From an uncultured Deferribacteres bacterium (GTDB lineage Bacteria; Zhuqueibacterota; Zhuqueibacteria; Zhuqueibacterales; Geothermadaptataceae), in assembly GCA_964014485.1 (NCBI GenBank), contig CAXHAT010000002.1, positions 1 to 64,000 on the forward strand: a stretch of 64,000 nucleotides of DNA, in the 5' to 3' direction. This document shows positions 21,601 through 60,120 of the stretch, piece by piece. The translations under genes and the position numbers were made by a program. A model generated the notes under the pieces. It saw only the letters and a program-made list of their open reading frames with translations, ran no database searches and was not told the origin of the DNA. Numbering within the stretch: the first letter of the stretch is position 1; every line of letters begins with the position of its first letter.

Positions 21601-23594
21601 AATTGATTGTCAGCGAAAACGCGCCCTTCGAGCATGGCGGCTCTGGAAAATGTAAACGACGCCTGCGCCGTTTGGCCGGATTGCAAATTGATCGTGTAGG
21701 ACGGCGGAATGCTGTGATATCCCTCGTACGCAGCTTGGACTTTCCATGCACCGGCGGGCAGCGAAAATTCATAGCTCTCGCTGCGCCCGTTGACGACTTC
21801 GAAGGTCTTGCCCTGATTTTCGAGCTTGAATCGCACGCCGGACAAGGGCAGCCCGTTCTCATCGAGCAGCGTACCGCTGACTTTGGCGTCGCCGCGCGTC
21901 AGAACAATGTCGCCGATATTCGCCAAACCCAGCGCATCAAATGCGGGCACGGAAATTTCCTGTTGGCTGAACCCAAAGGCGGAGACGAACAGGCTGGCGG
22001 GTTTGTCGTCAGCGGCGAGGGCGAAGAATCCAAGACCGTCGGCTTTTTCCGGTTTGGCGGACGGGGCCGTCGCAATTTCGGCGAAAGGCACGGGCGAACC
22101 GTCGGGCTCGACCACGCGGCCAAGAACGAGCCGCTGCGCGGGTGAATGGCGAACAATTGCGTCAGCATTTTGACCGCCGCCTAATTCAACGTCGACCGAA
22201 GAGGGCGCATAGCCGCGAACATTGCTGGAAATGGTGTAATCGCCGGACGGCGCATCAAATTCGATGTTGCCGCTGAAGCCGGTGAAAAGAGAAAAAGGCG
22301 GCCCTACGCCTTGCCCCCGAGAAATTTCAATATCAGCGAAGGGGATGGCAGCGCCGGTGGCGCGATCTACGCTGCGGATTTGCAGCGTGCCTTTGGAAGA
22401 TTGAAAAGAAAACGTGCGCGGCGGCGAGGCGGAGTACGTGCGGGGATTTTCAGCAAAAACCGTCACTGTTTGTTCCCGGCCAATGATAAAATCACGCGCC
22501 AGGAATTGTGCGCTGGTGTCGACGGTGATTTTTTGCCAAAGTACAATCGAGCCTTCGCCGAGATTTTCGTCTTCGATCAGTTCCTGCAAAACAACGCGGT
22601 AACGGGTCGCTCCGGGGACGCCGCGCCAGCGAAAGTCGATTTGATCCGTGCTGACGGTGGCGTCCTGTCCCGGAGTAAGAATTTGCGGGACGGGTAAGCT
22701 CACGTTGGCGGCCACTTCAAATTGGGTGGCGAAGAGGGGGAACAGCTCAAAAGTGACGTTGCGCAGATCAGGAGCAAATGCGCTGAACACGACCCAACTG
22801 TAGGTTTCTCCCGGAATGAGCGGCGGCGTATTCTGATCCGGCCAGAATCCTGACAAATCCGTCTCGCCGTAGCGTATCGACGAATTTTGTGTAAAAGCCT
22901 GCCAAACGACGTTAATGCCGACAATGTTTTCAATCTCGCCAGTCTCGGGATCGGTTTCAATGGACAATTCACCCTGCGAAACGACGAGATAATAATACGG
23001 GACGCCGCTGATCGGCGCCCAGCTAAAAATTGGCTCGTCGTTGTCCAAATTGAGCGTGTTTTCCGGCCCGATGACGCGGACTGGCGCTGGCGGCTGGACG
23101 AAAATCGGGAATTCAATCGAGGTTTCATCAGGCGTATCGACGTCTTGCAGAATGCAGTAGTATATGCCGACCGGCAAGTCCGGAAAAACGTCTCCGACGT
23201 CGAGCCGTCCCTGGCCGACTAGGTTGACGGCTTCAGGGTAGGCGGCGGGATCGCCTCCGCCCGGAGATGTGCTGTAGCGAATGCGGCAGCGGCGCTGATT
23301 ATCGATCCAAGAAATGCGCAGCGTGTCTTCCTTGCCCTGAGAAACAAAAGCGCTGTTGATCGAGCGAATGGTGATTTCCGAGCGAATGTTTTCGGGAGAA
23401 GCGAGCCTGACGTCGATGGCGGCGGAAGCGTTGTTTTTTAAAATTGGCTGGGATTGAGCGACAAGAATCGTTGGAATTATGGAAAAAAGAATCGTTAGAA
23501 ACGGGCTTTGTACAAAATTTTTTACATGGCGGAAAAACACCTCTCTTGCCCCCTTCGAAAGGGGGATTTTCACCGCTTCGTTCCTGATCATCAC
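18633..23594 (-). CDS. Large secreted protein with many carboxypeptidase-regulatory-like (CnaB-type) repeats and a FlgD-Ig/T9SS-like C-terminal domain
   Basis: Repeated GxV...GxP+xxAxV...TDxxGxY/F...GY units; C-terminal PNPFSP...KIYNLEGQLV...WGG...NGRYI...KSLVLIR. Confidence 0.85.
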   Translation of the reverse strand: MMIRNEAVKIPLSKGAREVFFRHVKNFVQSPFLTILFSIIPTILVAQSQPILKNNASAAIDVRLASPENIRSEITIRSINSAFVSQGKEDTLRISWIDNQRRCRIRYSTSPGGGDPAAYPEAVNLVGQGRLDVGDVFPDLPVGIYYCILQDVDTPDETSIEFPIFVQPPAPVRVIGPENTLNLDNDEPIFSWAPISGVPYYYLVVSQGELSIETDPETGEIENIVGINVVWQAFTQNSSIRYGETDLSGFWPDQNTPPLIPGETYSWVVFSAFAPDLRNVTFELFPLFATQFEVAANVSLPVPQILTPGQDATVSTDQIDFRWRGVPGATRYRVVLQELIEDENLGEGSIVLWQKITVDTSAQFLARDFIIGREQTVTVFAENPRTYSASPPRTFSFQSSKGTLQIRSVDRATGAAIPFADIEISRGQGVGPPFSLFTGFSGNIEFDAPSGDYTISSNVRGYAPSSVDVELGGGQNADAIVRHSPAQRLVLGRVVEPDGSPVPFAEIATAPSAKPEKADGLGFFALAADDKPASLFVSAFGFSQQEISVPAFDALGLANIGDIVLTRGDAKVSGTLLDENGLPLSGVRFKLENQGKTFEVVNGRSESYEFSLPAGAWKVQAAYEGYHSIPPSYTINLQSGQTAQASFTFSRAAMLEGRVFADNQLTAGATVTLTADSDGKTQTTTSDNFGVYSFDAPAGLYQLTAVKDGFAPFQTSVQLLDGMKTELDVTLSRASIIWGTVRTEETQAPLTNVEIVATSNGQALAVTDANGVWSFIAEAGRAYLLDASLPGFVSDGVMPVSVAEGDSARVDFLMNPASAVIRGLVRNADGAVANAQVNLIGRGRSIRTDEQGLFEISVEPGDYSLQAMLGCQSSQIMETSVALGQAADIVLELTGVATSVTGFVFDQFGQPIFDASIFAAGQENFTARTDSSGAYQLCLEPGPYFLLASRVGYANQDTSIIVANVDSLGGVNFFLPENFGTIQGRVQSDFGEPLSGVQVIFVNTFQQIVTSSNAAGIFTFEKIIPGEATIFTRSDDFFADPLNVVVPARETIEPTITMFRNDGFLSGRILDGFTDAGIEGALVVAQVQGTATFVQALSTAPNGEYRIDGLPVAPGRVFRVLASKEGFRQAAPLDSVEVNQENIDFALFATNATIGGTVVSADENLPVSSATVRLLRPGEITREFQTGDDGAFLFSGLTFTFEYSLEISHPNFKAQVFSINAPNDSLQIALDRIFSFMQGRVTRAGTDDGFPDARVIFASLDAFARSDTTTSGLDGRFFAQVFPGQYRVLAQAPLFFSTPSQHLVELAPNDTSVVLDFSLESQVLASLAIQGPTEILGGEQDGSQYSVAAVDTAGRSVNSVPNLLWSVDLGADTASVSSTGFLSTDSGYIGDLKVSVLAEEFGVRDTLEVNVLGVLRPEKELRFFGRFGQRIEFAENLFNSQFTIRSSVANLLPLQNVEEDFRIVSEIFRISPENIEFEAPAVFSLPVPAGVDAAQVTILRWNNLLSVWEDRTAVESVATSDSGRVAREILQGGDYALAEFSAALGILDLQITPNPFSPTRQNQFGEPGVAIAFSVTSNRVALPSVTAKIYNLEGQLVAILADRQPVFKGPQHFSWGGTTIDGRQARNGRYILHFSVNDGDKKKEQLKSLVLIR

Positions 23595-25102
23595 AGCCCC
23601 ACCGTCACGCCAAGTTGGGCGAATGAAGTGATTCCGAAAGTCAGGGCGTAATCGAGACGAAGGCGTTGCCAGTAGACGCGGTTGACGCCGCCGGAGACGG
23701 CAAAAATCGGGAACCAGAGCGTAGTTTGGGTCAGCTTTTCCGTCTCGTTTATGCTATGGATAAACGGGCGCGTTTGTACGGCGCCGAGCTTGACCTGCAG
23801 CCAGTCCGCGCCAAGATTGGTAAAAATGACGCGGCGCGGTTTCAGGCCAAGCTGGCGCATTCCTTCGGAATTGACTTGGGCTGAATCGCCAAACACGATG
23901 TACCGATAAGACAAGCTCGCGGCCTTGCCGTAAAAACCGTAAGTCAGGCTGGCTCGACCGGTTTTCCATTTTGTGGAGGCGGAAAAAGCAAAATGACGCG
24001 GAAAGGTGAAAGCGATGTCGGAGAGCAGGACGTTTCTTTGTAGCGTGCCGGTAAACTTGTCCTGAATGAGCCGGTTTGCGTCGAGAAACTGCTCGTCGGC
24101 TTCGGCTTTTAGGTCGATGGCCGCGACTTTGTCATAGCGAAGATTGAGTTCCTCGGGCATGGAAATGGAAGCGCCCCCAAAATACGCGGCATCCAACGAA
24201 AGTTTTTGCCAAAGCCTGTAGCTCACACCCAACCGCCAGCGCGCTCCAACGCCGTTGAGATTGCCGCGTAGAAATGCACGCAGGCTGTCGTAGTGAGTTG
24301 AAGTGGGGCTGTTAAATGCGAATTCCTGCGCGCCGCTGGAAACTTGCGCTTCCGGCGCCATGACGCCGGCGACAGTCATGGTTGAAGCGTAACGGTCGTA
24401 GCCAAGTCCGACGCCAAGATTATTGCCCACGCGCTTGCCGATGGCGAAGCTCAGTCCTCGCAGCCCAATTTCCGAAGAGAGCGCGCCGTTGACGCGCCCC
24501 AAGAGTCGAATCGTGGTGCCGCCGCCCGAAGCCTCGCTGACTGCGCTAAAGCGCCCGCCGTCGATTGAAAAGTCGAGACCTAGGCTGGTTTTGTTGTGAA
24601 TGGCAAGGCCGATTACAAAATATTTGTTGGTTAAAATTCCGCTGACATTGCCCTGTCTCCCCAAATACTTGACTTGCGGGCTGACTTCCACGCCTTCAAA
24701 ATCAAATGACGCCCGATCCTGCACGAAATCCTGAATGCCGAGCTCGATTTGATCATTAGTGTAACGCTGAACGTTGAAAACTCGGTTGACGGGAACGCTT
24801 AACGGCGGTTGGAAACTGGAATAGACGAGGCCTTTTTCTATGAACGCCAGCCCCGCCGGATTCCACCGTACGGTTTTGCCGCCGGGCGTGATTTGCGCAA
24901 TGCCGTCGCCTGCGCTTTCAAACGTGCCTGTGAATGAATTAAGTCCGTTGCCGCCAAAACGTACATCGAGGCCGACAACGCCGCCGTGAAACAATTCAAG
25001 GTTGCTGGACTGTGCGTTCAAGCTCACGATTGTGAAGATCTGAATGGAAATCAGGGAGATATAAATTAATGCGCGGTTCATTCTGCGTTTTGGCTGATTC
25101 AA
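23591..25102 (-). CDS. FadL/PorV-like outer-membrane beta-barrel protein
   Basis: Signal peptide, WNPAGLAF motif, beta-strand periodicity; stop overlaps the next start (GTGA). Confidence 0.65.
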   Translation of the reverse strand: MNQPKRRMNRALIYISLISIQIFTIVSLNAQSSNLELFHGGVVGLDVRFGGNGLNSFTGTFESAGDGIAQITPGGKTVRWNPAGLAFIEKGLVYSSFQPPLSVPVNRVFNVQRYTNDQIELGIQDFVQDRASFDFEGVEVSPQVKYLGRQGNVSGILTNKYFVIGLAIHNKTSLGLDFSIDGGRFSAVSEASGGGTTIRLLGRVNGALSSEIGLRGLSFAIGKRVGNNLGVGLGYDRYASTMTVAGVMAPEAQVSSGAQEFAFNSPTSTHYDSLRAFLRGNLNGVGARWRLGVSYRLWQKLSLDAAYFGGASISMPEELNLRYDKVAAIDLKAEADEQFLDANRLIQDKFTGTLQRNVLLSDIAFTFPRHFAFSASTKWKTGRASLTYGFYGKAASLSYRYIVFGDSAQVNSEGMRQLGLKPRRVIFTNLGADWLQVKLGAVQTRPFIHSINETEKLTQTTLWFPIFAVSGGVNRVYWQRLRLDYALTFGITSFAQLGVTVGL

Positions 25103-25559: not shown

Positions 25560-26414
25560 TTACTCAGAAGCGTTTTTAGAATGATCGGACGTGTGCTTTT
25601 TCTGACGTAATTTTGGAAAAAACTTTGAGATCGGATAGAATAATCTCCCCAAAAGACCTTCCGGATATTGATCCATATCTTCGAAGCCCAGCTTCTCGGG
25701 CTCGTCTCGATCTTTTGGCCAGTAGACTGTGCCGAATAGCCAATCCCAGACGCTCAAAACAATGCCGAAATTTTGTCCGCCGCGCCCGTGCTGAACCACG
25801 TCATGGTGCCAGACGTGCATTTTGGGCGAATTGATCACATACTTGAGCGGGCCGTAATCAAAGGGTAAATTAGCGTGGTTTAAGTCCTGCATCAAGGTGC
25901 CAATCACTGCAATGATCAGAATGATCGACCCGTCGACGCCGAGAATGACAAGCGGGAGATAGGAAAGCGTTTTGTAGACGACGACTTCGCCCCAATGAAA
26001 TCGGAAATTGCCGATCCAGTCCAACTCCTCGATGCTATGATGGAGCTTATGGAATTCCCAGAGCCAGGGAGTGTTGTGCAGGAGACGGTGGATGTTCCAC
26101 TCGATGAAGTCTTTCAAGATAAAGAAAACGATGAATTGCAGCCACAATGGAGAATTCTGCATAAGCGCGATGTTTTCGGGCACTGGCAGGCCTGCGTTGT
26201 ACAGGACGCCATTTAACCATAGAACCAGCTTTCCGGTTAATATTGCCATCAGCAAGCCCAGGTAGTGGCCGTTGAAGACGAGCCAAAAGAGGTCTTGCCA
26301 GAAGCCTTTCCGCAAAACCTTTTGTTTTTTTCTCCAGGGCGAAATTCGCTCAAGCCCGAAGCATAGCAACGACACGCCAATTAGCCAGAAATAATATTGT
26401 AGATAAACCGGCAT
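25560..26414 (-). CDS. Sterol desaturase / fatty acid hydroxylase family membrane protein
   Basis: His boxes HRLLH, HKLHH, RFHWGE, HVWHH; NFGIVLSVWDWLFGT. Confidence 0.92.
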   Translation of the reverse strand: MPVYLQYYFWLIGVSLLCFGLERISPWRKKQKVLRKGFWQDLFWLVFNGHYLGLLMAILTGKLVLWLNGVLYNAGLPVPENIALMQNSPLWLQFIVFFILKDFIEWNIHRLLHNTPWLWEFHKLHHSIEELDWIGNFRFHWGEVVVYKTLSYLPLVILGVDGSIILIIAVIGTLMQDLNHANLPFDYGPLKYVINSPKMHVWHHDVVQHGRGGQNFGIVLSVWDWLFGTVYWPKDRDEPEKLGFEDMDQYPEGLLGRLFYPISKFFPKLRQKKHTSDHSKNASE

Positions 26415-26547
26415 TTGGATTTTAGGACAATAAATTCAGTGCGTCAATTTTGATTTATCGAACCGTTTGAAACAAGCCTTTTAGTGAAGGCAAATAATAA
26501 CATCGACACACTTACTAATCAAACAAGATTAGCCAGAATTACATTTC

Positions 26548-26563
26548 TGGCATGACCTGTGCG
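26548..26563 (+). promoter_or_regulatory. Putative sigma54 (-24/-12) promoter
   Basis: TGGCATGACCTGTGCG: TGGCAT-N5-GTGC with exact GG-N10-GC spacing. Confidence 0.5.
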
Positions 26564-26573
26564 TTAAAAATGG

Positions 26574-26800
26574 TATAACTGAGAAGCATCATTTGGGGGA
26601 AGCGAAGCTTCTTTATGGCTCTTAGGGGTGAGTTTAAGGAGGTGTGCTTGGGTGTTTTGAGGTTATTCCGGGAAAGGGGGAGCGCTGTCGCAGGTTTGGG
26701 CAGCGCCGCTACTGGCCAGGGCGACTGGGGGGATCGCCTTGGCCGGCGATCCGGAAGCAGATTATTGACATCAAGACTGGAGTCTTTTGTCTCCACTTTT
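26574..26800 (+). ncRNA. Putative structured G-rich small RNA (or sORF transcript)
   Basis: Downstream of the sigma54-like motif; hairpins with G-U pairs on + (26682-26706, 26712-26746); repeated G3-G6 tracts; no convincing protein ORF. Ends are estimates. Confidence 0.35.
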
Positions 26801-26831
26801 GTCCGTTTCGCCGGAATGTTTCTCGAAAGCT

Positions 26832-27389
26832 TTAACCGGCTAAGGACGGACGCCAATTATTTTTGCTGTTGAAAATCCAATAATTACATGCTCGGTCATG
26901 GACATAACCTTGTCTTATGTTGCTGGACGAAATGTCCATGTTGTCGGAAGTGCGGGAGCGAGGCTTGGTAACAATTCTAATTTCCTTCAATTTTCTTTTC
27001 TTTCTAAGTCGATTGAACTCAAGGAACAGGTCGTAATATTCGCTCGTGACTAGCGCGTGCGTTATTTTGCTTCCATCGTCGTTTTTGTTTGAAAGGTCTT
27101 TGCCCAAATGCCGCCTGCTGGGCAACGGGCGAATGCTATACTCGATTTTTTTTCCCAATTGCTCGCACAATTCGTCGATGAATTGCTGGATGCGTTGCTT
27201 TCGAAATTCGTAGGGAAGAATTTTATACTTTTTGTTTTTGTTGGCGAATCCGTCGCTCGAAACATAGATCAAAGCGTTTTTGCTAATTTCAAACGCCATT
27301 CGAATATACTCTTTGTGCCCTTTGTGTAAAGCGTCAAACGTGCCGCCAATGACAATGCGTCGTTCATTATCATTATGATTATTAGACAT
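26832..27389 (-). CDS. HxGH nucleotidyltransferase resembling archaeal/eukaryotic-type phosphopantetheine adenylyltransferase
   Basis: IGGTFDALHKGH, SSDGFA..KK.KILPYEFR, FNRLRKKRKLKEIRIV, DISSSNIRQG. Confidence 0.8.
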   Translation of the reverse strand: MSNNHNDNERRIVIGGTFDALHKGHKEYIRMAFEISKNALIYVSSDGFANKNKKYKILPYEFRKQRIQQFIDELCEQLGKKIEYSIRPLPSRRHLGKDLSNKNDDGSKITHALVTSEYYDLFLEFNRLRKKRKLKEIRIVTKPRSRTSDNMDISSSNIRQGYVHDRACNYWIFNSKNNWRPSLAG

Positions 27390-27606
27390 GATTTTTCATC
27401 CTGAAATAATTGCGGGGACGGCCGCTAATCCTTAGCGCCCCCCAGATTACGGGTATCAGCAAAAAAATTTCGTTTTATTATACTTTCTATTTCCGATCAA
27501 TGCGGATGCGCCGCCCGCAGCCGACGATTCCTTCACTGCCGAAACTACCGCTCTATTCGAAACAAGGAATGTTATAGAGTCAGCAGGAATAATATCAGGG
27601 AGGAGT

Positions 27607-30600
27607 ATGATGAAAAATGAAAGCAATGGCGCCTTGAGCAAGCTCAGCGATTTTATTTCCAAACTCACTGACGCAAATCATACATTGCTTGCAAATTATC
27701 ATCATTCAGAAAAGCGCATCGTTTGCGAATTTTGCACAAAGACATGCGACAAAACACATGCATCAAATTGTTCGTTCAGTTTGGTAAGCGCTTCAGGCAG
27801 AACTCAAACTTATTTTGAAACGGGCTTTTCTAAAGGAGTCGTTTATTCTCCGAAAAAGGGAGAAATATTTGAAACGGAAACCAAGATTTTCCCATTGGTC
27901 GAAAGGGAAGCGCCGCCGTTTAATACGATTATACTTGAATTGTCTGGGAATCGCGACTTTGGGGAATCGGAAATCAGCCTCATGCATATCGCAGCTTATT
28001 TTGCGATAGACGCATTAGAGCGCGATGCTAACAATCTTCGCATGATTGAAAAATTGAATTTGTTATCCCACGCAAGCAACGGCCTTCTGAAGCAGGTCGA
28101 ACACACGCAACTTACTCGAAAACTCGACGACATTGTGAAGACGGCCGCACTGGCGTTGGATGCTGAATTATGCACGCTTTGGCGCGTGCGAAACGGAAGC
28201 GTCGCTATAGAAACGAGTTATTCGCAGAGCGGAAAAGTCTTAGCGTCTGAATCTGAGTTTTCCCCCATCGCGCCTACGCCTGAAGACGGTATAACGGGTT
28301 ACATTGTCAATGAACTCGCGGAGAAAAAAGCGCCTGTTTACATCAACAAAAAGCAGCTTGACAAGCTTAAACGGGAGCGTTCGCGAAAATATTTGAAACC
28401 GGTTGATTTTACGAAATCCGCTGACACATACTGCGAATTGGCTTCTCCTATTCTCGACGACGGCGGGCGTCTTGTCGGGGCGCTTTTGGCTTACAACAAG
28501 CTGAACGCCGAAGGCGAGCCAATTCAAGGTTGCGGGTTCGACGAAAAACTTGATGGCCCGTTGGTCAAGATCCTCTGTTCCAAAATACACATCGCTTTGC
28601 AGAACGCAGATCAAGTACGAGACCTTAACAGTTACAAACTCATCATTGAAAGCACCCCGGACCCGGTCATTATCTCTGACCGTACCGGGCGGATTACTTA
28701 TATCAATCCGGGCGCTTTCAATATTTTCGGCGATTTAAAAGGGAAAAATGTTCTCACCCAGTATGTTGACAAAGACGGACAAATTAATGAGACTGAAGCC
28801 AGAGACGTCAGGCGGAATCTGTTAAATTCGCCCAAGAAACGACTGACGGATTATGAAACGCATTTCAAGAGCATTTCCGGCGAGATTATCCCTATCAGCT
28901 TGTCTGTCAGTTTGTTGCATGACGAAAACGGCGATGAAGCCGGGACGATTGGAATCGCCAAAGACTTGCGCCGTTTCAAAGCCCTCTCGGACGTCAGTCA
29001 GTCCTTGTTAGAAACGCATGAAGCGGATGAAATCCTTGAGAGCATCACGGTCTTTTCGCGAGAACTGCTGAACTGCAAACGCGCTTATATCAAAACATAT
29101 AAAGAACGAGACAATACGCTGGCTTTTCGGGAAATCAGCTCAGAAATTTCCGGGGAAAAGCTGCCTGTTCTCTCTACTCCTGTGGCGGCTGGCATGACAG
29201 GCTATGCCTTCGAAAATAATCAGTCCGTAATGGCCGGCAATCTCAGCAAAGAGCCGCTCTATGATTATGACCCCGTTTTTCCCAACGTTGAATCAAAATT
29301 AGCTGCGCCAATTGCGTGCGAGGACGGGACCACGGGTGAAATTCGAAGGCTGGGCGTTATCAGTGTTGACAGCGAGGAAATAGACGCATTCACGAGCAGC
29401 GACCTGGCTTTTCTACGGACGTTGGCAAGCAGCGCGGCGATCGCTCTGAAAAATGCCGAAACAATCCAGACGCAACAAAAAAGCATTGCCCGGCTGGCCG
29501 CTTTTGACAGAGTTCAGCAAGCGACCTTGCAAGAACAGCCGGATCAGGATCAAATATACGACGCTTTGCTGGATGCGGCTGTTGATACATTGGGGTTTGG
29601 CTACGCGGTCGTCGCTACGGTTGACAGAAAAAAGCAAATAATCAAGTCTGTCAAGGGTCGAAATATCCCGCATGATTTTCTTGAAAGTCCGGCTCATCAT
29701 CTCAACAGTAAGGATATCCAAGCCTGGGTGGTCCGGAACAAAGAGAGTGAGTATTTGGACGGCTGGGACGAGCGGCTCGATAAGGAAATTTATGAGAAAT
29801 ACGACCACGAAAACCTCGTTCGCATTTTCATTCCGATTATTGCACGCGGTGAAGTTCTGGGGACGCTAGAAGCTGGCTACCAAAAAGCTGACAAGCAACG
29901 TATTGAAGAGACTGAGATTCACACGCTCAATCAGTTGGTCAACCTTGCGGCCAGCGGCATGGCTCACATCATTTTGCTCACCAAGCTAAAAGAAGATTTG
30001 GCGCTTCGCACTTCGCTTGAGAACCAACTTGAAACGCTTAATCAGGCAATCTTGAAAATCATGGACGCTCAGAACGAGCAAGAAGCCGCAAAAATTATCT
30101 TTTCCAACCTCGAAAAAATCGGTTATAAAAAAGGGCTGTTGTCCCTGATAAACGACGGCACGGGAAAACTCGAAGGGAAATATGCGAACGGGAAGAACTG
30201 GGGCAGGCTGAAAAGCAGGCTCTCCTACGGTTTGTCAGGAAAGAACATTCTCGCTCAGGCGCTCAGAACCCGCTCGCCGATTCTTGCCAAAAACAGCTTA
30301 CAAGACCACCGCTGGAACCGCAAAATCGCGGCGGAATCGAATATCCTTTCCCATTATGTCATTCCCTTGACGGTGCAAAATGAGCCGATTGGCGTGCTGC
30401 AAATAGACCTTTCAGACGACCAGAAATTGGTTCATGGGGACAAGGCGGTTTTTCAGCGGAAAATGCAGATTCTAAATACTTTCGCCAACCAATGCGCCAT
30501 TGCGATTCGGAATATTCGGCAATTCATGATCATCAAAAACCTGGAAACGAATATCGCTGAAACCGCGCATGAATTCCGCAGTCCGCTTCACAATATCATG

Positions 30601-31275
30601 ACGCAGGTCGGGGGGCTGCGAGAGTCGCTTGAACTCGATGAGAACCAGGAAAGCATCTCACAATTCGTCGAAGTGATCGAAGAAGAAATCTATCGTGCGA
30701 AGCGCCAGGTCGATAACTCGTTGCTGCTTACGGAGCATACAAGAGAAGCGATGGAATTCAACTTTCGTGAAGGGCGGATTCAAGACATAGTTCACGTCTG
30801 CGTGGACGCCTACAAGTTGAGAGCGCTAGAGCGCGGCATACGCTTCATCGTCCCCGAGAGCGTTTTGCACCTCAAGCCCTTTGCTTTTGATCACGACCGT
30901 ATGAAGCAGGCGATCACCAATCTCATTGATAACGCCGTAAAATACTCGCACTACCACCAATTTATCCACGTTTCGGGCAATGACGACGGGACGCAAATTA
31001 ATTTGGAAATTGCAGACCGAGGCTTAGGCATTCCGCCCGATCAGTTCGAAACCATTTTTGAAGGATTTCAACGAAGCGATGCAAAAGATGAAATTCGATA
31101 CATCCCGGGAACCGGCCTCGGGCTCAAAATTTCGAAAGAGATCGTTGAGCGCCACGGCGGCCGAATCGCAGTTATGAGCGATCCTTATTCGCGGAACCCT
31201 TTGAAAATTGAACAATTGCAGGATTACAAAACAGTGTTCAGGCTGACGCTCCCCAAAAAACAAAAGAAGAGGTAG
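27607..31275 (+). CDS. Soluble multi-sensor histidine kinase (GAF-PAS-GAF-GAF-GAF-HisKA-HATPase)
   Basis: GAF-type segments (GITGYI, GMTGYA...SKLAAPI, FIPIIARGEVLG, VIPLTVQNEPIG); PAS DPVIISDRTGRITYINP; AHEFRSPL, NAVKY, DRGLGI, GTGLGL; no TM helix seen. Confidence 0.9.
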   Translation: MMKNESNGALSKLSDFISKLTDANHTLLANYHHSEKRIVCEFCTKTCDKTHASNCSFSLVSASGRTQTYFETGFSKGVVYSPKKGEIFETETKIFPLVEREAPPFNTIILELSGNRDFGESEISLMHIAAYFAIDALERDANNLRMIEKLNLLSHASNGLLKQVEHTQLTRKLDDIVKTAALALDAELCTLWRVRNGSVAIETSYSQSGKVLASESEFSPIAPTPEDGITGYIVNELAEKKAPVYINKKQLDKLKRERSRKYLKPVDFTKSADTYCELASPILDDGGRLVGALLAYNKLNAEGEPIQGCGFDEKLDGPLVKILCSKIHIALQNADQVRDLNSYKLIIESTPDPVIISDRTGRITYINPGAFNIFGDLKGKNVLTQYVDKDGQINETEARDVRRNLLNSPKKRLTDYETHFKSISGEIIPISLSVSLLHDENGDEAGTIGIAKDLRRFKALSDVSQSLLETHEADEILESITVFSRELLNCKRAYIKTYKERDNTLAFREISSEISGEKLPVLSTPVAAGMTGYAFENNQSVMAGNLSKEPLYDYDPVFPNVESKLAAPIACEDGTTGEIRRLGVISVDSEEIDAFTSSDLAFLRTLASSAAIALKNAETIQTQQKSIARLAAFDRVQQATLQEQPDQDQIYDALLDAAVDTLGFGYAVVATVDRKKQIIKSVKGRNIPHDFLESPAHHLNSKDIQAWVVRNKESEYLDGWDERLDKEIYEKYDHENLVRIFIPIIARGEVLGTLEAGYQKADKQRIEETEIHTLNQLVNLAASGMAHIILLTKLKEDLALRTSLENQLETLNQAILKIMDAQNEQEAAKIIFSNLEKIGYKKGLLSLINDGTGKLEGKYANGKNWGRLKSRLSYGLSGKNILAQALRTRSPILAKNSLQDHRWNRKIAAESNILSHYVIPLTVQNEPIGVLQIDLSDDQKLVHGDKAVFQRKMQILNTFANQCAIAIRNIRQFMIIKNLETNIAETAHEFRSPLHNIMTQVGGLRESLELDENQESISQFVEVIEEEIYRAKRQVDNSLLLTEHTREAMEFNFREGRIQDIVHVCVDAYKLRALERGIRFIVPESVLHLKPFAFDHDRMKQAITNLIDNAVKYSHYHQFIHVSGNDDGTQINLEIADRGLGIPPDQFETIFEGFQRSDAKDEIRYIPGTGLGLKISKEIVERHGGRIAVMSDPYSRNPLKIEQLQDYKTVFRLTLPKKQKKR

Positions 31276-31277
31276 TT

Positions 31278-31721
31278 ATGACCAAAACGCTATTCGTGGA
31301 GGATGAGCCGAGGGGAGTGAATCCGTACTTTACCGGTCTGAAACGAAGAAGCATAGAGTGTGAGTTAGCCCAAAACTTTGATGAAGCGCTATACAAATTG
31401 GAACGCGGTCGCTACGACCTGGTGTCTTTAGACCTTAACTTCGCTCGCGGCAAAAACAGACTTGCCCAGTTCGATCCGCTTTCCGCGGGCTTAAAGCTTT
31501 TGGAATTGATCCGTGGCGGAAAGATAAAGAACTGCCCGGATGACGTCGTTGTCATTGTCCTAACGGCCTCCAGCAGCAGGTCTGTTGAAAAACAGATTAA
31601 GTCGCTGGGCGTGTTTGAGTATTTGACAAAACCCGTCGATTATCGTTCTGTCATGGCAACGTTCGAGCGAGCTCAAGGGCATTTGCTTGCACAAAAAAGC
31701 TCCGGTCAAAACAATGAATGA
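31278..31721 (+). CDS. Single-domain response regulator
   Basis: LFVEDE, SLD (phospho-Asp), VLTA, TKP; no output domain. Confidence 0.9.
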   Translation: MTKTLFVEDEPRGVNPYFTGLKRRSIECELAQNFDEALYKLERGRYDLVSLDLNFARGKNRLAQFDPLSAGLKLLELIRGGKIKNCPDDVVVIVLTASSSRSVEKQIKSLGVFEYLTKPVDYRSVMATFERAQGHLLAQKSSGQNNE

Positions 31722-34700
31722 TAACCCATTTGTTTTTAATCAACCTGTTGATCCCAAAAACAATCGTTCGGTTTTTTTTCATCGCGAACGCAGCTTGAAA
31801 AAGGCCGTTCTGAATATCCAGGCAGGCGAATGGCTTCTGATCACCGGGCCTCGGAAGTGCGGTAAATCCAGCTTTATCCGACAATTGCACAGCCTGCTCG
31901 GTGAGTATGGTTCTGGAGCATTTTGCTGCGTTGTAGAAAATACGGGAGCTCTGCTCTCGGATGATTTTAGCAAATTCGCCGACGACTTAATTGCAAAACT
32001 TGGAAAAACCTTAAAGCTTCAATCCTCTGCTAAAAAGCGACTTTTCAACGATTCGACCGACCTTAAGACTGCGCTTGCTGACCTCATTAAACTCACGAGC
32101 GCTAAAACGAGAATCGTCATCGTAATTGACGGTTTTGAGAATGCTTCATCCAAATTTGCTCGCGAACTGTTTGCTCAAATATCCAGAATTTTTTGTTCGC
32201 TTCCCGCCGAGCCGGATTTGCGAAAAATTCAATTCATATTTTCAGGAAGTTTTTCAAGCGAGAACATTAGCCTGGAAGATGAAGGCTTCCTTCGAGAATC
32301 TTCAACGACAATTGAGCTGAAAGACGTCGGTTTCAGCGAAAGCAACAGGATGCTGGAGAAGGTTTGCGCGCGGTACGATATCACGCTCGAACCGGGCTTT
32401 ACACGATTGATTTATGAAGAAACCCAAGGCACGCCCTACCTGATTCAGAGAATATGCAGCGCCATCGTCGAAAACGCGCTATTGAGCCGTAAATCGCCGG
32501 TTTTTGCAAAACAGGAAGCTGAGAAGGTTCTCTCAGAGTTTGTTAAAAACGGCGACGCTTTGCTCGAAAAAATTGTAAGAACTGTAGAACAAAGCCAATC
32601 GCTGCTCAAGTCGTTGGTCAGATTTTTCTCGAACAGTGCTGTTAAGCAGTCACGATTGGACAGAGAATTAAGCCGGTTGCACGCCCTCGGCGCTCTCAGT
32701 TTTAATAGCGGCGTTTTCAGGTTTCGAAACCCGCTGTTTGCAAGATTTTTTCAAGGGTATTTTACGACTGAGCGATTGACGAAAATTTATATTTCACATC
32801 GCGACTTTTTGGCTGCAGGAAAAACTCAGGCCGCCTCTCAAGCTGCGCATCAAAATGCTGAAGACGCTCTGCAAAGCTTGCTGGCAAACGCCCAACGTTT
32901 CGAAGAAATTTCGAACAGCTCTGGTTTGATCGAAAAGGTTTTGACCGTCTTTTTGAAGTCGATTGAAGGCGCGCATCATTGTGGATTATTCGTATTCGAT
33001 GAATTAAGCAAGAAAATTCATGTAAAGGACATGGTTGGCCCGGCGACAAAAGCGCTCAAAGGTTTCAGGGCTAGATTTGGAGAAGGGGTCACTGGAGCGG
33101 TGTTCCAAACCGGAAAAGCGCGGATCATTAAAGATGTAACGGATGAAATTGAAACGCCGGATTTCATCGTACGTCAGGAAGCTGAACGTTTGAACCTGGG
33201 AGCAATGGCCTCACTCCCTCTGGTTGCTCACGGTGAGGTTTTCGCCGTCGTCAATTTGTGTCTAAGCAAACCTTACGTCATCACGCCTAGTGATGAGAAA
33301 CTGTTGAAGACCATGGCGTACCAGGCAAGTCTTGTGCTTCAGAATTTTCCAGCCAGAATGAACGAAAATTCTCGGCGGCTTGAAATGCTTGAACAAGTTT
33401 TTGAAGCCGTCAACACTCACATTGATTCAGAAATCGCCTTCAATCACATCCTGACGGCTTTTGCTAAAATGCGGAATCAAAAAACGGTTTTTGTAGCATG
33501 GCAAGAGCAGAGTAACTTGGTGTGGCGTTTCAAATTTAATCTCGAGGAGGCTGACGTTTCTGCTTCATTGAGTTTGGGGATGAACTCAATCGACAGTCGC
33601 CCGTTAGGAAGCGCGGAAGCGTTGCTTGGCGCTGCCAAGAAAGTTTTGAAAGAAGGACGCCCAGGGTATAATGTTTCTGAATGGCGGTGGGTTCAGTTCG
33701 CTCAGGCCTGGCCGATTAAGTGCGATTCCGACAGGGTTGGTTATCTCGTCGCAGCTTCGCCTCGCAAACGAAAAACGTCTCGGTTTGAAGCCGGACTATT
33801 TGCATTGTTGGCCCAAATGTGCGCGGCTGTTATTTCCAAAAAACGAATCTACAACGTTGCGCGCAAAAAGACGGACCAGTTTGTGAGTCTTGCCGGGGTC
33901 GGTGAATTTATTAGCAAACAATTGAATGAGAAAGAATTGTTAGGACGCATTGCCCAGGCAGGATTAGATGCTATAGACGGGGTTAATAAGAGCGTTCAGG
34001 TCCTGCTCAAAGAGAACGAGAAAGAGCAGTTGGTCGTGAAGGCGGTTCAAGGGGGGAGCTCTTGTGCTCTAAAAGTCGATGACGTTGTGCCTTTTTCTGA
34101 TGATACGCCGTTAACGCGAGCACTACGAGAAAAAGAGCTTCAGCTTTCAAAGCCAAACAATCGAAAAGGAGCTACTGATAGAAAGGAGCAAGAAGACACT
34201 TCTGAATTTGCCGCGCCGATTGTTTTTCAAGAGGAGGTTTTGGGCGTTATTTCCGCCAAGAGCCGGGGACGAACCGACGCTCGCGAATTGAACAAGGAAT
34301 CTTTGCAAGCCTTGTCGCGAAATGCGGCAATCGCAATCAAGGTCGCGGATCTGTGCGGTAACCAGCTTCGTGAGCTTCAAGTTTTGTATGGAACGGGACA
34401 GAAAATCGTGGTGATGCGCAACATAGATCAGATTTTGAGAACGATCTGTCTCTCGGCGCTGCGAGCTTTTGGCAGTCACGAGCGTCTGGTTTCGATTTAT
34501 CTTCTTTATGAAGCGGACAATCGGATCGCCCGCAAGTTTAGTCGAGGATTCAAACGCAAATATAATGGCGATACGCAGGTCCGATTAGAGCAAAACGCGT
34601 TCTATGAGCTTGTTGTGAATAGACGCAAGCGCGTGTTTATTCCAGATATCAGCATCGGCCCCAAATTCCGGCCCAGCTCGCCGGACATAAAGTCCGCCTT

Positions 34701-36009
34701 GGTTGTGCCAATTTTGATAAATAGTCCGGCAAATGGATTCGTTGTCATGGAAAGCGAAATTGAGGATGACTTTGGCGACGCAGAATTTAGACTCCTGAAG
34801 GGATTGGCCGACCAGGCAGGCATTGCAATTGAAAATGCAATGCTAAAAAAAGAATTGGCCCAAACACAAACAGCGTTCGAGCTTGCGGCAATTGAAGAAG
34901 CGTTTGCCGAGATCGCGCACGACATTCGCAACGTTTCTACCATGATTAGCGGTGAAACGCAATGGCTTGTGAAAAACCAAAAGGACGGCGTTGTTAGTTT
35001 TGCGGAGGTAGAAGCCGCCGCCTTGAAAATTGAAGCGCAAGTCAAAAGAATCGAAACTTTGGCGAACCCCGCGGATCATATGCACAAGCTGCCGCCTGTG
35101 TTAAAGCCGGTAGATATTGGCGATTTGTTAAATGAAGCGATTGCGCTTGTTGAAACTTCTGCGCACGAAGATGGGATAAGAATCAGATTAATTCAGCGCG
35201 GTGTTAAAACAAAAATGCCTGCCGACGGCCATAGATTGGTTCGCGCCTTCTTCAATATTTTAAAAAATGCTGTGGATGCAAGCCCTCCGGGCGGGGCTAT
35301 TAAGATTTCCGTGATGCAAACGGAAAATGAGTTCGTTGTGCAATTCGTCGATTCCGGTAAAGGTATCGATGAAGAAATACAGCATAAAATCTTTACGCCG
35401 CTTTTCACAACAAAAACCACTGGTTCCGGTCTCGGACTTTCTTTGACCAGGCGCATTATTGAGCGTGATCACGGCGGAAGCCTGAGCGTTGAAAGCAACT
35501 TGGGCGCGGGGACGACGGTTTGCGTATCACTGCCAATCAAACCTCAAAAAAAACGAGAAGAGAAATTGATTGATCCGATCGTTTCTATGCCCGGTCAAAC
35601 TGATGTCGGCGGTTTAAAGGTGCAGCATAAACATATTCTTGTTGTCAACGATGAAACGGACTTGCTGCAAAGAATTCAACATACGCTGCAAGATTCCGGT
35701 TTTATGACGACGGGGATGGAGCGTGGCGCTGAAGCGGTGAAACTCTGCAAGAAAAAACGCTACGATCTTGTTTTGATGGATTTTGATCTCAAGAAAGACA
35801 CGAGTGAAAACAGGAACGCTTCGGACTTTCTTCCTGAAATCCGCAATTTGCTGCCCGAAACGCCTATAATTATCACTTCAGCTTCGGTGTCGAAGAATGA
35901 ATTGCCGCGAAAAAACTATAACAGCTTTTTGGAAATTAATTCGACCTTTTGGACTCAATTGAGTTGCATTGTGGACGATTTTCTGCATAATAGTGCGAAA
36001 GGAGCTTAA
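31714..36009 (+). CDS. STAND-like P-loop NTPase fused to GAF domains, a histidine kinase and an atypical receiver
   Basis: NPFVFNQPV...FFHRE, Walker A GPRKCGKS, Walker B IVIVIDG, GxP TQGTPYLIQRIC; several GAFs; IAHDIRN, NAVDA, DSGKGI, GSGLGL; REC ILVVNDE...LMD. Start assigned to ATG 31714, overlapping the upstream stop. Confidence 0.85.
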   Translation: MNDNPFVFNQPVDPKNNRSVFFHRERSLKKAVLNIQAGEWLLITGPRKCGKSSFIRQLHSLLGEYGSGAFCCVVENTGALLSDDFSKFADDLIAKLGKTLKLQSSAKKRLFNDSTDLKTALADLIKLTSAKTRIVIVIDGFENASSKFARELFAQISRIFCSLPAEPDLRKIQFIFSGSFSSENISLEDEGFLRESSTTIELKDVGFSESNRMLEKVCARYDITLEPGFTRLIYEETQGTPYLIQRICSAIVENALLSRKSPVFAKQEAEKVLSEFVKNGDALLEKIVRTVEQSQSLLKSLVRFFSNSAVKQSRLDRELSRLHALGALSFNSGVFRFRNPLFARFFQGYFTTERLTKIYISHRDFLAAGKTQAASQAAHQNAEDALQSLLANAQRFEEISNSSGLIEKVLTVFLKSIEGAHHCGLFVFDELSKKIHVKDMVGPATKALKGFRARFGEGVTGAVFQTGKARIIKDVTDEIETPDFIVRQEAERLNLGAMASLPLVAHGEVFAVVNLCLSKPYVITPSDEKLLKTMAYQASLVLQNFPARMNENSRRLEMLEQVFEAVNTHIDSEIAFNHILTAFAKMRNQKTVFVAWQEQSNLVWRFKFNLEEADVSASLSLGMNSIDSRPLGSAEALLGAAKKVLKEGRPGYNVSEWRWVQFAQAWPIKCDSDRVGYLVAASPRKRKTSRFEAGLFALLAQMCAAVISKKRIYNVARKKTDQFVSLAGVGEFISKQLNEKELLGRIAQAGLDAIDGVNKSVQVLLKENEKEQLVVKAVQGGSSCALKVDDVVPFSDDTPLTRALREKELQLSKPNNRKGATDRKEQEDTSEFAAPIVFQEEVLGVISAKSRGRTDARELNKESLQALSRNAAIAIKVADLCGNQLRELQVLYGTGQKIVVMRNIDQILRTICLSALRAFGSHERLVSIYLLYEADNRIARKFSRGFKRKYNGDTQVRLEQNAFYELVVNRRKRVFIPDISIGPKFRPSSPDIKSALVVPILINSPANGFVVMESEIEDDFGDAEFRLLKGLADQAGIAIENAMLKKELAQTQTAFELAAIEEAFAEIAHDIRNVSTMISGETQWLVKNQKDGVVSFAEVEAAALKIEAQVKRIETLANPADHMHKLPPVLKPVDIGDLLNEAIALVETSAHEDGIRIRLIQRGVKTKMPADGHRLVRAFFNILKNAVDASPPGGAIKISVMQTENEFVVQFVDSGKGIDEEIQHKIFTPLFTTKTTGSGLGLSLTRRIIERDHGGSLSVESNLGAGTTVCVSLPIKPQKKREEKLIDPIVSMPGQTDVGGLKVQHKHILVVNDETDLLQRIQHTLQDSGFMTTGMERGAEAVKLCKKKRYDLVLMDFDLKKDTSENRNASDFLPEIRNLLPETPIIITSASVSKNELPRKNYNSFLEINSTFWTQLSCIVDDFLHNSAKGA

Positions 36010-36060
36010 CTAAACCCAGCCGAGTGTTGGGAAAAGGGGTACAGGGGTAAGAGGGGCCGC

Positions 36061-37437
36061 ATGAGTTACTATAAATTGCTCATCGTTGACGATGAAGCCG
36101 GAATCAGGGAGCAGCTTCTTCGCTGGCTAAACAATGAGGGCTTTTCAGCCGAGCAAGCAGCCGCGGGACAGGAAGCGCTCAACCTGCTCAAGAAGCGAAA
36201 TTTCAATATCGTTTTGCTCGATTTGCGACTGCCGGACATGAGCGGATTTCGAATCCTTGAAGAAATCCGTAAAAGTTATCCGGATATTTGTACGATCGTT
36301 TTGACTGGTTACGGCAATGATGCGTCGCTTCAGGAAGCGCGGAAGGCGGGAGCTTTCGATTTTTTGACCAAGCCGTTTCAATTTTCCGATTTGGGGGGAA
36401 GGATTGACGCCGCCATGCGTCAATTCATGAAGCACAGAGAAGTTGAATCGCAAACGGAAGAGCAGCGACGTCATTTCCAATTTGAAAATATCATTGGCGA
36501 AAGCCCGGCTATGCAGCAGGTCTACGACAAAATAAAGACCGTTGCACCCACCGATGAAACAGTCCTCATTCTCGGAGAAAGCGGCACCGGCAAAGAGCTT
36601 GTCGCGGGAGCCATTCACTACAACAGCCGACGCAGGCAACATCGTCTGATCATGGAAAATTGCAGCGTCATTCAGGCGAATCTCGTTGAAAGCGAATTGT
36701 TCGGGCATGAGAAAGGCGCTTTTACCAGCGCCTCGGCAAGAAAGATCGGCAAATTTGAGTTGGCGCACGAGAAGAGTCTTTTTCTCGACGAAATCGGAGA
36801 ACTCTCACTCGCTTTACAAGTGAAGTTTTTACAGTTCTTGCAGTATAGGACTTTTGAAAGAGTGGGCGGCAACGAGCCCATTCAGGTTGATGTTCGCGTT
36901 ATCGCTGCAACCAACAAAGACTTGCCCGAGGCCGTGGAAAACAAAGAATTCCGCGAAGACCTTTTTTATCGTTTGGATCGATTTTCTATTCGCGTTCCTC
37001 CGCTCAGGGAAAGGGTTTCAGACATTCCGCTTTTAGTTAATCATTTTATCAAGAAGGCTAATAGGCGCAATAATCAAAACGTCGAGGGCGTTTCGGACAG
37101 CGCGCTAGACCTTTTGCAGAGCCATGATTATCCGGGAAACGTTCGAGAACTGGAAAATATTATCGTGCAAGCGATGCTCTACAACACAAAGCCGATCATA
37201 CAAGCGGATACAATTCGAAGCTGCATTCGGCCGAGCAAGGCGATGAACGGTAAAATGCACTTTCACGACATGGCTTATCGCGAAGCAAAGGAAATATTTG
37301 AGCGTGCCTATTTTGCGCAAATGCTTGAATTAACAAACGGCAACATTTCTCGCGGCGCGATCAAGGCTGGATTGGACAGGACGTGGTTTCGTAAAAAGCT
37401 GAAAGAACTGGGGCTTTGGACCGGGGGGGCTGATTGA
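36061..37437 (+). CDS. NtrC/AtoC-family sigma54-dependent response regulator
   Basis: REC (IVDDE, LLD, TKP), GESGTGKE, ESELFGHEKGAFTSA, LFLDEIG, REDLFYRL, PGNVREL, Fis-like HTH. Confidence 0.95.
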   Translation: MSYYKLLIVDDEAGIREQLLRWLNNEGFSAEQAAAGQEALNLLKKRNFNIVLLDLRLPDMSGFRILEEIRKSYPDICTIVLTGYGNDASLQEARKAGAFDFLTKPFQFSDLGGRIDAAMRQFMKHREVESQTEEQRRHFQFENIIGESPAMQQVYDKIKTVAPTDETVLILGESGTGKELVAGAIHYNSRRRQHRLIMENCSVIQANLVESELFGHEKGAFTSASARKIGKFELAHEKSLFLDEIGELSLALQVKFLQFLQYRTFERVGGNEPIQVDVRVIAATNKDLPEAVENKEFREDLFYRLDRFSIRVPPLRERVSDIPLLVNHFIKKANRRNNQNVEGVSDSALDLLQSHDYPGNVRELENIIVQAMLYNTKPIIQADTIRSCIRPSKAMNGKMHFHDMAYREAKEIFERAYFAQMLELTNGNISRGAIKAGLDRTWFRKKLKELGLWTGGAD

Positions 37438-37448
37438 AGCTGAACTTG

Positions 37449-37478
37449 AGCGCGGCGACCATGCGCCGTCGCGCTTTT
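37449..37478 (+). terminator. Probable intrinsic terminator of the signalling operon
   Basis: agcgcggcg...cgtcgcgct hairpin followed by a short T run. Confidence 0.55.
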
Positions 37479-59996: not shown

Positions 59997-60104
59997 AGTT
60001 TTCGCAATCCTCAATACTTCAGCTTTGCTATAAAAGATTGGCCGCTTCCATGTACATTTTCCCGGAGGGTGTTCAGGCAGGCGATAATGCGTGCTTCGCG
60101 CCAA

Positions 60105-60120
60105 AGCAATTAATATGCCA
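60105..60120 (-). promoter_or_regulatory. Putative sigma54 (-24/-12) promoter of the kinase-FHA genes
   Basis: Minus strand reads TGGCATATTAATTGCT: near-consensus with exact spacing. Confidence 0.65.

Follow-up and report, generated by a model that had tools for sequence, protein, structure and literature searches.

We describe here a four-gene operon in a stretch of 64,000 nucleotides (nt) of contig CAXHAT010000002.1 (assembly GCA_964014485.1), from an uncultured bacterium of the Zhuqueibacterota; this whole stretch, called the window below, is part of contig C2 of a genome of 8.4 Mb in 465 contigs that is 97% complete. This single operon, inherited as a unit, encodes two soluble histidine kinases loaded with GAF and PAS domains, a receiver that stands alone and an activator of the NtrC/AtoC type. 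The locus is most likely an uncharacterised form of a familiar bacterial pathway, namely a conserved signalling module with a local sigma-54 output. Stated more specifically, we consider it moderately probable that the operon encodes a lineage-restricted, wholly cytoplasmic, multi-kinase two-component module acting on sigma-54 promoters that adjoin it. No description of the module or of its kinase-NTPase fusion was found in the literature searched, in which subscription journals are thinly covered, and to that extent the system is undescribed, as a preliminary description of the same DNA had proposed.

The physical organization of the operon agrees with that description. The gene for the first sensor histidine kinase (HK1) and the receiver gene are 2 bp apart, the receiver gene overlaps the hybrid kinase gene by 8 bp, and a gap of 51 bp precedes the activator gene, 3′ of which a 10-bp GC-rich hairpin (37448-37476; -20.2 kcal/mol) is followed by UUUU. 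Membrane helices had been said to be absent, and no 19-residue window in the operon proteins is transmembrane-like, the maximum Kyte-Doolittle value being 1.59. The further claim of roughly eight GAF-like domains plus a PAS is a fair one, because Pfam assigns one PAS and seven GAFs (four in HK1, one of them weak at 23.6 bits, and three in the hybrid kinase), and two more segments of ~170 amino acids (aa) each match no Pfam family.

The catalytic and phosphoacceptor domains are those of a two-component pathway. HK1 combines HisKA (32.5 bits) and HATPase_c (80.8 bits) domains with the H-box AHEFRSPL, and its dimerization and histidine phosphotransfer (DHp) region is PhoR/WalK-like. In the hybrid kinase, HATPase_c scores 89.1 bits, and a weak HisKA (14.9 bits, within 34870-35100) carries the H-box AHDIRN; the DHp region is AtoS/NtrB-like, with AtoS and ZraS as the top-scoring named models. 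Residues E8, D9, D52, T96 and K118 of the stand-alone receiver are invariant across all 11 aligned orthologues. The C-terminal receiver of the hybrid kinase (35620-36009) matches positions 1-83 alone of the 111 in the profile and is therefore partial; the K-P motif was not seen in it, and the same shortening is found in orthologous representatives (profile positions 1-79 to 1-88). This receiver may be degenerate or specialised. The activator has AtoC (421 bits), a PEP-CTERM regulator and NtrC as its top models, retains the phospho-site D54, and matches Sigma54_activat (PF00158) at 223.9 bits against a cut-off of 20.2. The genome encodes one rpoN (a single Sigma54_DBD gene) and has 54 matches to Sigma54_activat, 44 of which exceed 130 bits. 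A predicted complex of the stand-alone receiver with the NTPase domain of the hybrid kinase had a score of 0.00, which counts neither way.

The N-terminal part of the hybrid kinase had been called a STAND NTPase, and this is partly borne out. Walker A (GPRKCGKS) and Walker B (VIVIDG) motifs are present, K48, G50 and K51 are invariant in a 12-row alignment in which the Walker B acidic position is also conserved, and ATPase_2 passes its Pfam cut-off (51.9 vs 33.2 bits), whereas AAA_35 (23.9 vs 27) and nSTAND1 (22.6 vs 27.1) both fall below theirs. For a structure model of residues 1-400 (pLDDT 81.8, pTM 0.78), the best folds retrieved by Foldseek are 2fna and 2qen, archaeal proteins of the ATPase_2 family with a target-normalised TM-score of 0.63-0.65, followed by ORC/Cdc6, RuvB and RFC; the STAND proteins CED-4 and MalT are at ranks 28 and 33. 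The label 'STAND-like AAA_35/ATPase_2 NTPase' is defensible.

This NTPase belongs to a large family. When a profile of 12 orthologues was run against 1.84 billion representatives, 4464 of them matched at E ≤ 1e-3; 867 did so at 1e-10 and 26 at 1e-30, and the 11 top-ranking proteins are 1078-1501 aa long. GAF and HATPase_c are combined in 16 of the 28 nearest representatives according to Pfam, while others have GAF alone or a kinase domain alone; five of the 28 are fused to Pkinase, CHAT, TIR+EAD7 or caspase+SMODS, and AAA_35 is above cut-off in many of the more distant fused relatives. Ten relatives that were looked up carry generic automatic names only, and one distant member is from an Anaerolineae metagenome-assembled genome (MAG). 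There is no close paralogue in the window's own genome (next best match E 2.8e-6), and a word-indexed protein search with the NTPase part gave no match, which reflects the sensitivity limit of that search. A distant AAA_35-GAF-kinase, with an NTPase 21% identical, lies in a different operon on another MAG contig (L053:1900-11300). There, two one-mismatch sigma-54 sites precede genes for a 357-aa Sigma54_DBD protein and a RapZ-N/AAA protein, after which come the gene for the AAA_35-GAF-kinase itself and those for a receiver, a receiver-adenylate/guanylate cyclase and a sigma-54 activator without a helix-turn-helix (HTH) match; in theme this operon is like the present one, but it includes an enzyme for a nucleotide signal.

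The operon is well conserved among the relatives that have it. These are MAGs of candidate division KSB1/Calditrichota, uncultured sediment bacteria, two third-party assemblies being labelled otherwise; all counts of distribution given here are samples, in which absence means not found in the genomes searched. A neighbourhood survey, as the preliminary description had suggested, covered 16 relatives' loci (12 together with L041/L066, L042, L047 and L050, where L042, from genome G023, and L047, from G016, belong to unpublished genomes). The order HK1-receiver-NTPase-kinase is kept in all 16, and the activator gene comes next in 13, the remaining three ending at contig edges; in full-length loci the HK1 orthologues are 38-58% identical. 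Co-occurrence of the four genes is thus upheld, but that of the neighbouring nucleotidyltransferase is not general, as discussed below. With the NTPase part as query, an orthologue was detected in 14 of 41 related genomes (G000 included) at E ≤ 1e-46 and 27-32% identity over ~390 residues, in open reading frames (ORFs) of 1201-1582 aa. In a profile search of 151 genomes of the phylum it was detected (E ≤ 1e-30) in 14, representing four families of one class, and was not found in the 21 other families sampled.

Ten operon-linked activators form one clade (96/99), separate from three other activators of the window's own genome; the sister branch to the window is formed by the two members of its own family (98/97). 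It follows that the module has been inherited vertically, with losses. The GC content of the operon genes, a check that had also been proposed earlier, is 0.46-0.48 against a genome mean of 0.50; on this ground, together with the placement of the window in its own family, horizontal transfer of the operon was rejected. As far as these comparisons reach, the module appears to be an old operon that has been inherited vertically and lost often, and its reading as an island is rejected.

The relatives also provide the evidence for a local output, since a sigma-54-like site adjoins the operon in each lineage whose flank is readable. In two members of the window's own family (G003 and G006), TGGCAC-N5-TTGAA stands 65-69 nt before an AAGGAGG-led ORF of 78 or 72 aa with a transmembrane segment, which is followed by a hairpin terminator, and a second site (TGGCACATTTTTCGCA or CGGCATATTTTTCGCA; 1 and 3 mismatches) stands 250 or 179 nt before HK1. 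In a member of another family (G142), a one-mismatch site lies 80 nt before a hydrophobic ORF of 46 aa directly upstream of HK1. Genera g6, g7 and g9 have a homologous small ORF beyond the transferase gene in all seven loci that include that flank, preceded by TGGCC..GTTGC-type sites with at most two mismatches in five loci, three in one and four in one; in g6 and g7 the site starts 74-76 nt before the small ORF, and in g6 a further sigma-54 site precedes a DUF4384 gene downstream of the activator gene. The relatives' small ORFs are of 46-164 aa, match no Pfam family, and have a transmembrane-like segment in six of the seven that were scored. The recurrent design thus appears to be that of an operon, an adjacent sigma-54 site and a small, fast-evolving gene for a membrane protein; by this comparison the local sigma-54 outputs of the relatives would be small hydrophobic proteins and not a conserved RNA.

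A plausible scheme for the module is the following. The GAF and PAS arrays would supply several cytoplasmic inputs, and HK1 would phosphorylate the stand-alone receiver, the partial receiver of the hybrid kinase, or both. The N-terminal AAA_35/ATPase_2 NTPase would gate the output of the hybrid kinase through nucleotide-dependent assembly, and the hybrid kinase would in turn phosphorylate the NtrC-type activator, which would open sigma-54 promoters directly beside the operon. The products of these promoters in the relatives would be small membrane proteins of hydrophobic character; one genus probably also transcribes the operon from such a promoter. In the present genome the site at 26548 would drive a unique transcript of ~250 nt, encoding a small basic protein or acting as a small RNA (sRNA).

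The site at 26548 (TGGCATGACCTGTGCG) had been put forward as a sigma-54-type promoter, and here the evidence is equivocal. The candidate keeps GG-N10-GC, it sits in a 417-bp spacer and points the same way as the operon, an orientation shared with G003, G006 and G142, and its flanks (ATTTCTGG...TGCGTT) are similar to those of operon-adjacent sites in relatives. A 24-column matrix was made from the genome's 61 sites with at most one mismatch, 51 of which have an ORF of at least 80 aa beginning 10-260 nt downstream. With this matrix the candidate scores 13.9 bits and ranks second in the window and 160th in the genome (16.8 Mb of strand), a rank that is plausible given one rpoN and 44 strong activators. 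An ORF begins with ATG 67 nt from the start of the site, compared with 65-80 nt in relatives. We consider it fairly likely that the promoter is real.

Several points weigh against a module with a local sigma-54 output in this genome. The candidate has three mismatches to TGGCAC-N5-TTGCW, among them a G in place of the usual T of the -12 box, and is missing from the list of sites with at most two mismatches; matches as good as this by mismatch count are found 40 times in the window and 4879 times genome-wide, as often as chance would give. Its rank by the matrix is partly circular, because the training sites were chosen by consensus. The TGGC of its -24 box falls inside a minus-strand hairpin with a T-rich tail, and the inverted repeat that forms this hairpin (26532-26551) could terminate the transferase transcript. 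As for the 85-codon ORF behind the site, its codon usage is below that of 99.6% of the genome's true coding windows, it has no transmembrane segment (maximum hydropathy 0.98), it overlaps the 3′ end of the transferase gene by 41 nt, and its alignment with the relatives' small ORFs is gapped and unconvincing at 17% identity, showing no homology. In the activator, HTH_8 is below cut-off (16.8 vs 22 bits) and the loop at residues ~226-231 reads GAFTSA, where GAFTGA is the loop by which NtrC-family activators contact sigma-54. Genome-wide, GAFTSA occurs in two of 34 such loops and GAFTDA in four; in 11 operon-linked orthologue loci (two from unpublished genomes) the loop is GAFTGA in nine, GAFSGA in one and unmatched in one. 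Finally, the wiring proposed above is drawn from domain types and gene order, and because the relatives are kin, the 16 loci amount to about five independent lineages.

Many of these points would be accommodated if the operon were real but the match at 26548 fortuitous, with the hairpins of 26551-26831 forming the 3′ untranslated region (UTR) and terminator of the transferase mRNA and the activator having its targets elsewhere in the genome. The chance-level mismatch count and the position of the -24 box within the minus-strand hairpin would be expected, the minus strand of the region folds with a stronger z-score than the plus strand (-4.8 vs -3.4), nothing in the region is conserved, and activators with the variant GAFTSA loop may be weak. 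Such a 3′ UTR would nevertheless be unusually long, at 280 nt, and chance would also have to account for a site that the trained matrix places 160th genome-wide within the very spacer of 417 bp, when each readable lineage has an operon-adjacent sigma-54-like site at a fixed distance from a small ORF and the ATG in the window stands at that distance. We regard the fortuitous match as rather unlikely, and continue to favour a local sigma-54 promoter.

Some further observations concern the surroundings of the site. The 11-mer ATTAGCCAGAA occurs twice upstream of it, at 26386-26400 and 26528-26545, ~145 bp apart, the first copy being inside the 5′ end of a fatty-acid hydroxylase gene; the repeat could be a binding site or a matter of chance. 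No shared upstream activator-binding motif was seen when promoter flanks were compared by eye across lineages. The window's best sigma-54 site is another one, TGGCATATTAATTGCT at 60105-60120 on the minus strand (1 mismatch, 17.0 bits, rank 41 in the genome); a gene for a Ser/Thr protein kinase with PEGA and CarboxypepD_reg domains (57144-60014, minus strand) lies ~90 nt downstream of it.

What a transcript from 26548 would specify is a separate question. A search for sequencing runs listed three of DNA, all from one study, and none of RNA. The region had been described as structured and non-coding-looking, and its folding is confirmed: 26570-26835 is more stable than shuffled sequences on both strands, and the core, with a GC content of 0.60 against 0.36 in the flanks, folds into an outer stem that encloses two long hairpins (-53.1 kcal/mol, z -3.5). 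Codon usage is also atypical, the three ORFs of the region lying below 99.3-99.9% of true coding windows. The non-coding character is tempered by the ATG at the distance conserved in relatives; in the same frame, a TTG at 26648 lies directly behind a perfect AAGGAGG. An open frame of 85 codons is not rare in sequence of 60% GC. A word-indexed protein search with the 85-aa product found no match, and tblastn with the relatives' small ORFs as queries yielded no match below E 1.3 anywhere in the genome. If the promoter is real, the odds are roughly even between a small basic protein and an sRNA.

As a conserved output, an sRNA fared poorly. An Rfam search with the folded region was without match, and no second copy was found in the genome, where the region is unique; a repeat or mobile-element origin was rejected because of this single copy. 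When three intergenic regions were compared with 25 loci, blastn returned short chance matches only and nhmmer none. A covariance model of the 111-nt core, a single-sequence model of low sensitivity, had no credible match in 40 relatives; its best matches (E 0.1-0.26) were in three of the 40, all of them without the operon.

The nucleotidyltransferase gene that diverges from the operon is a second neighbour to which the preliminary description had given a role. Its reading as a divergent HxGH enzyme stands, since the protein is of the CTP_transf_like family with the motifs HKGH and ISSSNIR intact in translation. HxGH and ISxxxxR are the nucleotide-binding motifs of phosphopantetheine adenylyltransferases (PPATs). 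The best family model is NF001985, for archaeal-type PPAT (97.5 bits, under the cut-off of 104), and the closest solved structure is 3do8, a PPAT (E 1.3e-9). It had been asked whether this is the only housekeeping CoaD. The genome has four CTP_transf_like genes, the others being a canonical CoaD (TIGR01510, 169 bits on a fragment), NadD and RibF, and because a true CoaD is present elsewhere the transferase is an extra paralogue. Metagenomes were scanned for closer relatives of the intergenic region; the transferase as query retrieved nothing, and HK1 retrieved a single match of 1.3 kb that is unrelated.

Orthologues of the transferase (E ≤ 1e-10) are present in 12 of 41 genomes. Ten genomes have both enzyme and operon, in every case as divergent neighbours (one of these genomes is the unpublished G016). 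The operon is without the transferase in four of its 14 genomes (G003, G006, G023 and G025), and no transferase is near the operon locus of G142. Conversely, two genomes of genus g7 (G011 and G024) have the transferase without the operon, placed between S8 and M28 peptidase genes (L063 and L064). The same M28 gene adjoins the transferase gene in G014, a g7 genome that has the operon, an arrangement that implies, as judged from these gene orders, that in this genus the four genes were gained or lost cleanly as a block, along with their small ORF. Because each part also occurs without the other, the link between them is facultative; at the same time, that adjacency is kept while other neighbours vary argues for some coupling. 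The transferase is a frequent yet dispensable neighbour, with an accessory role at most; it may be regulated from the divergent region in common with the operon, or its activity may be connected with a ligand. In genus g6 (L032:16904-17557, L033:2220-3026, L036:8887-9693 and L037:16726-17523), an FRG-domain gene convergent with the transferase gene lies between it and the sigma-54-driven small ORF, and L036 has a second transferase copy in tandem.

These data bear on the interpretation first offered for the locus, taken here as that of a closed circuit in which the PPAT-like enzyme makes an adenylylated molecule, the GAF arrays sense it, and the relay leads to a sigma-54-dependent regulatory sRNA of the Pxr or Qrr kind. 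The enzyme is indeed a paralogue beside a true CoaD with intact motifs, and its divergent position is constant where both are present; the transcript region looks non-coding by codon usage and is strongly folded; and the distant AAA_35-GAF-kinase operon on L053 carries a nucleotide-signal enzyme in the form of the receiver-cyclase. The precedent invoked for it was cited accurately: in Myxococcus, pxr lies downstream of the sigma-54 regulator gene nla19 and is apparently transcribed from a sigma-54 promoter, according to the excerpted text of PMC5568312. Against a self-contained circuit, nevertheless, stand the operons without the enzyme and the enzyme that stays between two peptidase genes in two operon-less genomes; an RNA output is weakened by the lack of any RNA homologue or covariation found in the searches above and by relatives whose outputs would be proteins. 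We consider the closed circuit improbable. Overall, the earlier observations hold for the genes and the folded region, and the interpretation is partly supported, the transferase link being facultative and the sRNA unproven.

A broader reading, to which we also attach little probability, is that the nucleotide-gated soluble kinase cascade is a device for intracellular surveillance in KSB1/Calditrichota, with a small, fast-evolving sigma-54-dependent effector that is a membrane peptide in most lineages and has given way to a structured RNA here. Just as tentatively, its GAF arrays would read a metabolite or nucleotide derivative, possibly from the PPAT-like enzyme, and NTPase-driven assembly would activate the kinase. 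An implication, were this true, is that a STAND-type switch would be wired to transcription through a phosphorelay, with protein and RNA outputs interchangeable. Less probable still is that the NTPase-kinase is a conflict-type sensor whose sigma-54-induced hydrophobic peptides act on the membrane as effectors for dormancy or abortive infection, because the fusions of the NTPase family to Pkinase, CHAT, TIR+EAD7 and caspase+SMODS, the lineage-variable small hydrophobic ORFs and the FRG-domain gene of the g6 loci are outweighed by vertical inheritance, a GC content near the genome mean, Pfam-based scans (the PADLOC library was not searched) that showed no flanking mobile or defence genes, and the absence of histidine-kinase domains among the effectors of the systems surveyed in the excerpted text of PMC7159879.

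The features of the locus are collected in Table 1. Near the divergent intergenic region there is a sigma-70-like site (27383-27410, plus strand), and within the region itself the genome-trained matrix finds no sigma-54-like site above 0.0 bits. Elsewhere in the window, 18633-25102 on the minus strand encodes a 1653-aa protein with about ten CarboxypepD_reg repeats and then a 503-aa ORF without a family match; the GC content of these two ORFs is 0.54-0.56, above that of the signalling genes.

Table 1. Features of the signalling locus, with positions counted from the first nucleotide of the window
Feature	Position	Strand	Basis
Inverted repeat of 7 bp that overlaps the -24 box and resembles a minus-strand terminator	26532-26551	-	Fold of -15.1 kcal/mol, z -3.9
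Candidate sigma-54-type promoter TGGCATGACCTGTGCG (TGGCAT-N5-GTGCG)	26548-26563	+	GG-N10-GC spacing; genome-trained matrix
Putative sigma-54 transcript, GC-rich structured region (core 26655-26765)	26575-26800	+	Folds; GC content
ORF of 85 codons, alternative TTG start at 26648 behind AAGGAGG	26615-26872	+	ORF list
Weak terminator-like hairpin, then CUUUUGU	26778-26795	+	-14.1 kcal/mol for 26765-26815, z -2.1
PPAT-like (archaeal-type) nucleotidyltransferase, 185 aa	26832-27389	-	CTP_transf_like PF01467, 45.9 bits
Divergent intergenic region, transferase to HK1	27390-27606		Sequence reading
Sensor histidine kinase (HK1), 1222 aa	27607-31275	+	Pfam: unassigned N-terminus, weak GAF, PAS, three GAFs, HisKA, HATPase_c
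Single-domain response regulator, 147 aa	31278-31721	+	PF00072, receiver only
Hybrid kinase, 1431 aa	31714-36009	+	NTPase (1-~390), three GAFs, ~170-aa unassigned segment, weak HisKA, HATPase_c, partial receiver
NtrC/AtoC-type sigma-54 enhancer-binding response regulator, 458 aa	36061-37437	+	Receiver 99 bits, PF00158 223.9 bits, AAA lid
Intrinsic-terminator-like hairpin closing the operon	37448-37478	+	Fold prediction

Among known systems, the module invites comparison first with those that pair a sigma-54 promoter with a small output. Small membrane proteins induced through sigma-54 or a two-component system are known from the Psp system and from feedback peptides of the MgrB type, and the relatives' hydrophobic ORFs of 46-164 aa directly behind sigma-54-like sites resemble them; unlike those, the relatives' ORFs match no family, the ORF in the window is not hydrophobic, and the kinases are cytoplasmic. 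In Vibrio, the LuxO-Qrr pairing is an example of sigma-54-dependent small RNAs adjacent to their activator. Like Nla19-Pxr and LuxO-Qrr, the window has an operon-adjacent sigma-54-type site followed by a short, strongly folded and apparently non-coding stretch. The difference is that conservation and covariation were not found for this stretch in the relatives searched, that an ORF start stands at the conserved distance from the site, and that the relatives' sites precede ORFs for small membrane proteins.

The transferase, for its part, resembles the archaeal/eukaryotic-type PPATs in its best model (NF001985), its best structure (3do8) and its HxGH and ISxxxxR motifs, and differs from archaeal PPAT in scoring below the cut-off (97.5 vs 104 bits) and in coexisting with a canonical bacterial CoaD. 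The excerpted texts of two papers from the Aravind group (PMC7159879 and PMC8195603) name GAF as a nucleotide-binding domain and mention receivers that act without kinases. The NTPase shares with AAA_35 and ATPase_2 proteins (PF14516 and PF01637) the Walker A and B motifs and a helical and winged-helix-like extension; in this locus it is joined with GAF arrays and a histidine kinase, whereas relatives within the family are fused also to Pkinase, CHAT, TIR and caspase domains. Soluble multi-GAF kinases fused to such NTPases are common in metagenomes, and the present locus gives a fusion of this kind a fixed context, in which another kinase lies upstream and a receiver, an NtrC-type activator and an identifiable local sigma-54 output accompany it. 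Because this genetic context is fixed, the input-output logic is testable, and it could reveal how an NTPase switch and a phosphorelay are joined.

Finally, the closest parallels to the module as a whole are AtoS/AtoC and NtrB/NtrC. The likeness lies in the top-scoring models (AtoS and ZraS for the hybrid kinase, AtoC at 421 bits and NtrC for the activator) and in the architecture of the activator, which has, besides a receiver and an AAA+ sigma-54 domain, an HTH-like tail at its C-terminus that stays below the HTH_8 cut-off. None of the named models attains its cut-off, and the module proteins are therefore not orthologues of AtoS/AtoC or NtrB/NtrC; in contrast to those systems, both kinases here are soluble and have three to four GAFs each, the operon further comprises an extra kinase, a receiver that stands alone and an NTPase module, and the loop of the activator is GAFTSA. 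Set beside these pathways, the operon does not form a new category but a well-delimited, class-restricted addition to two-component signalling, in a phylum that is almost without experimental genetics.

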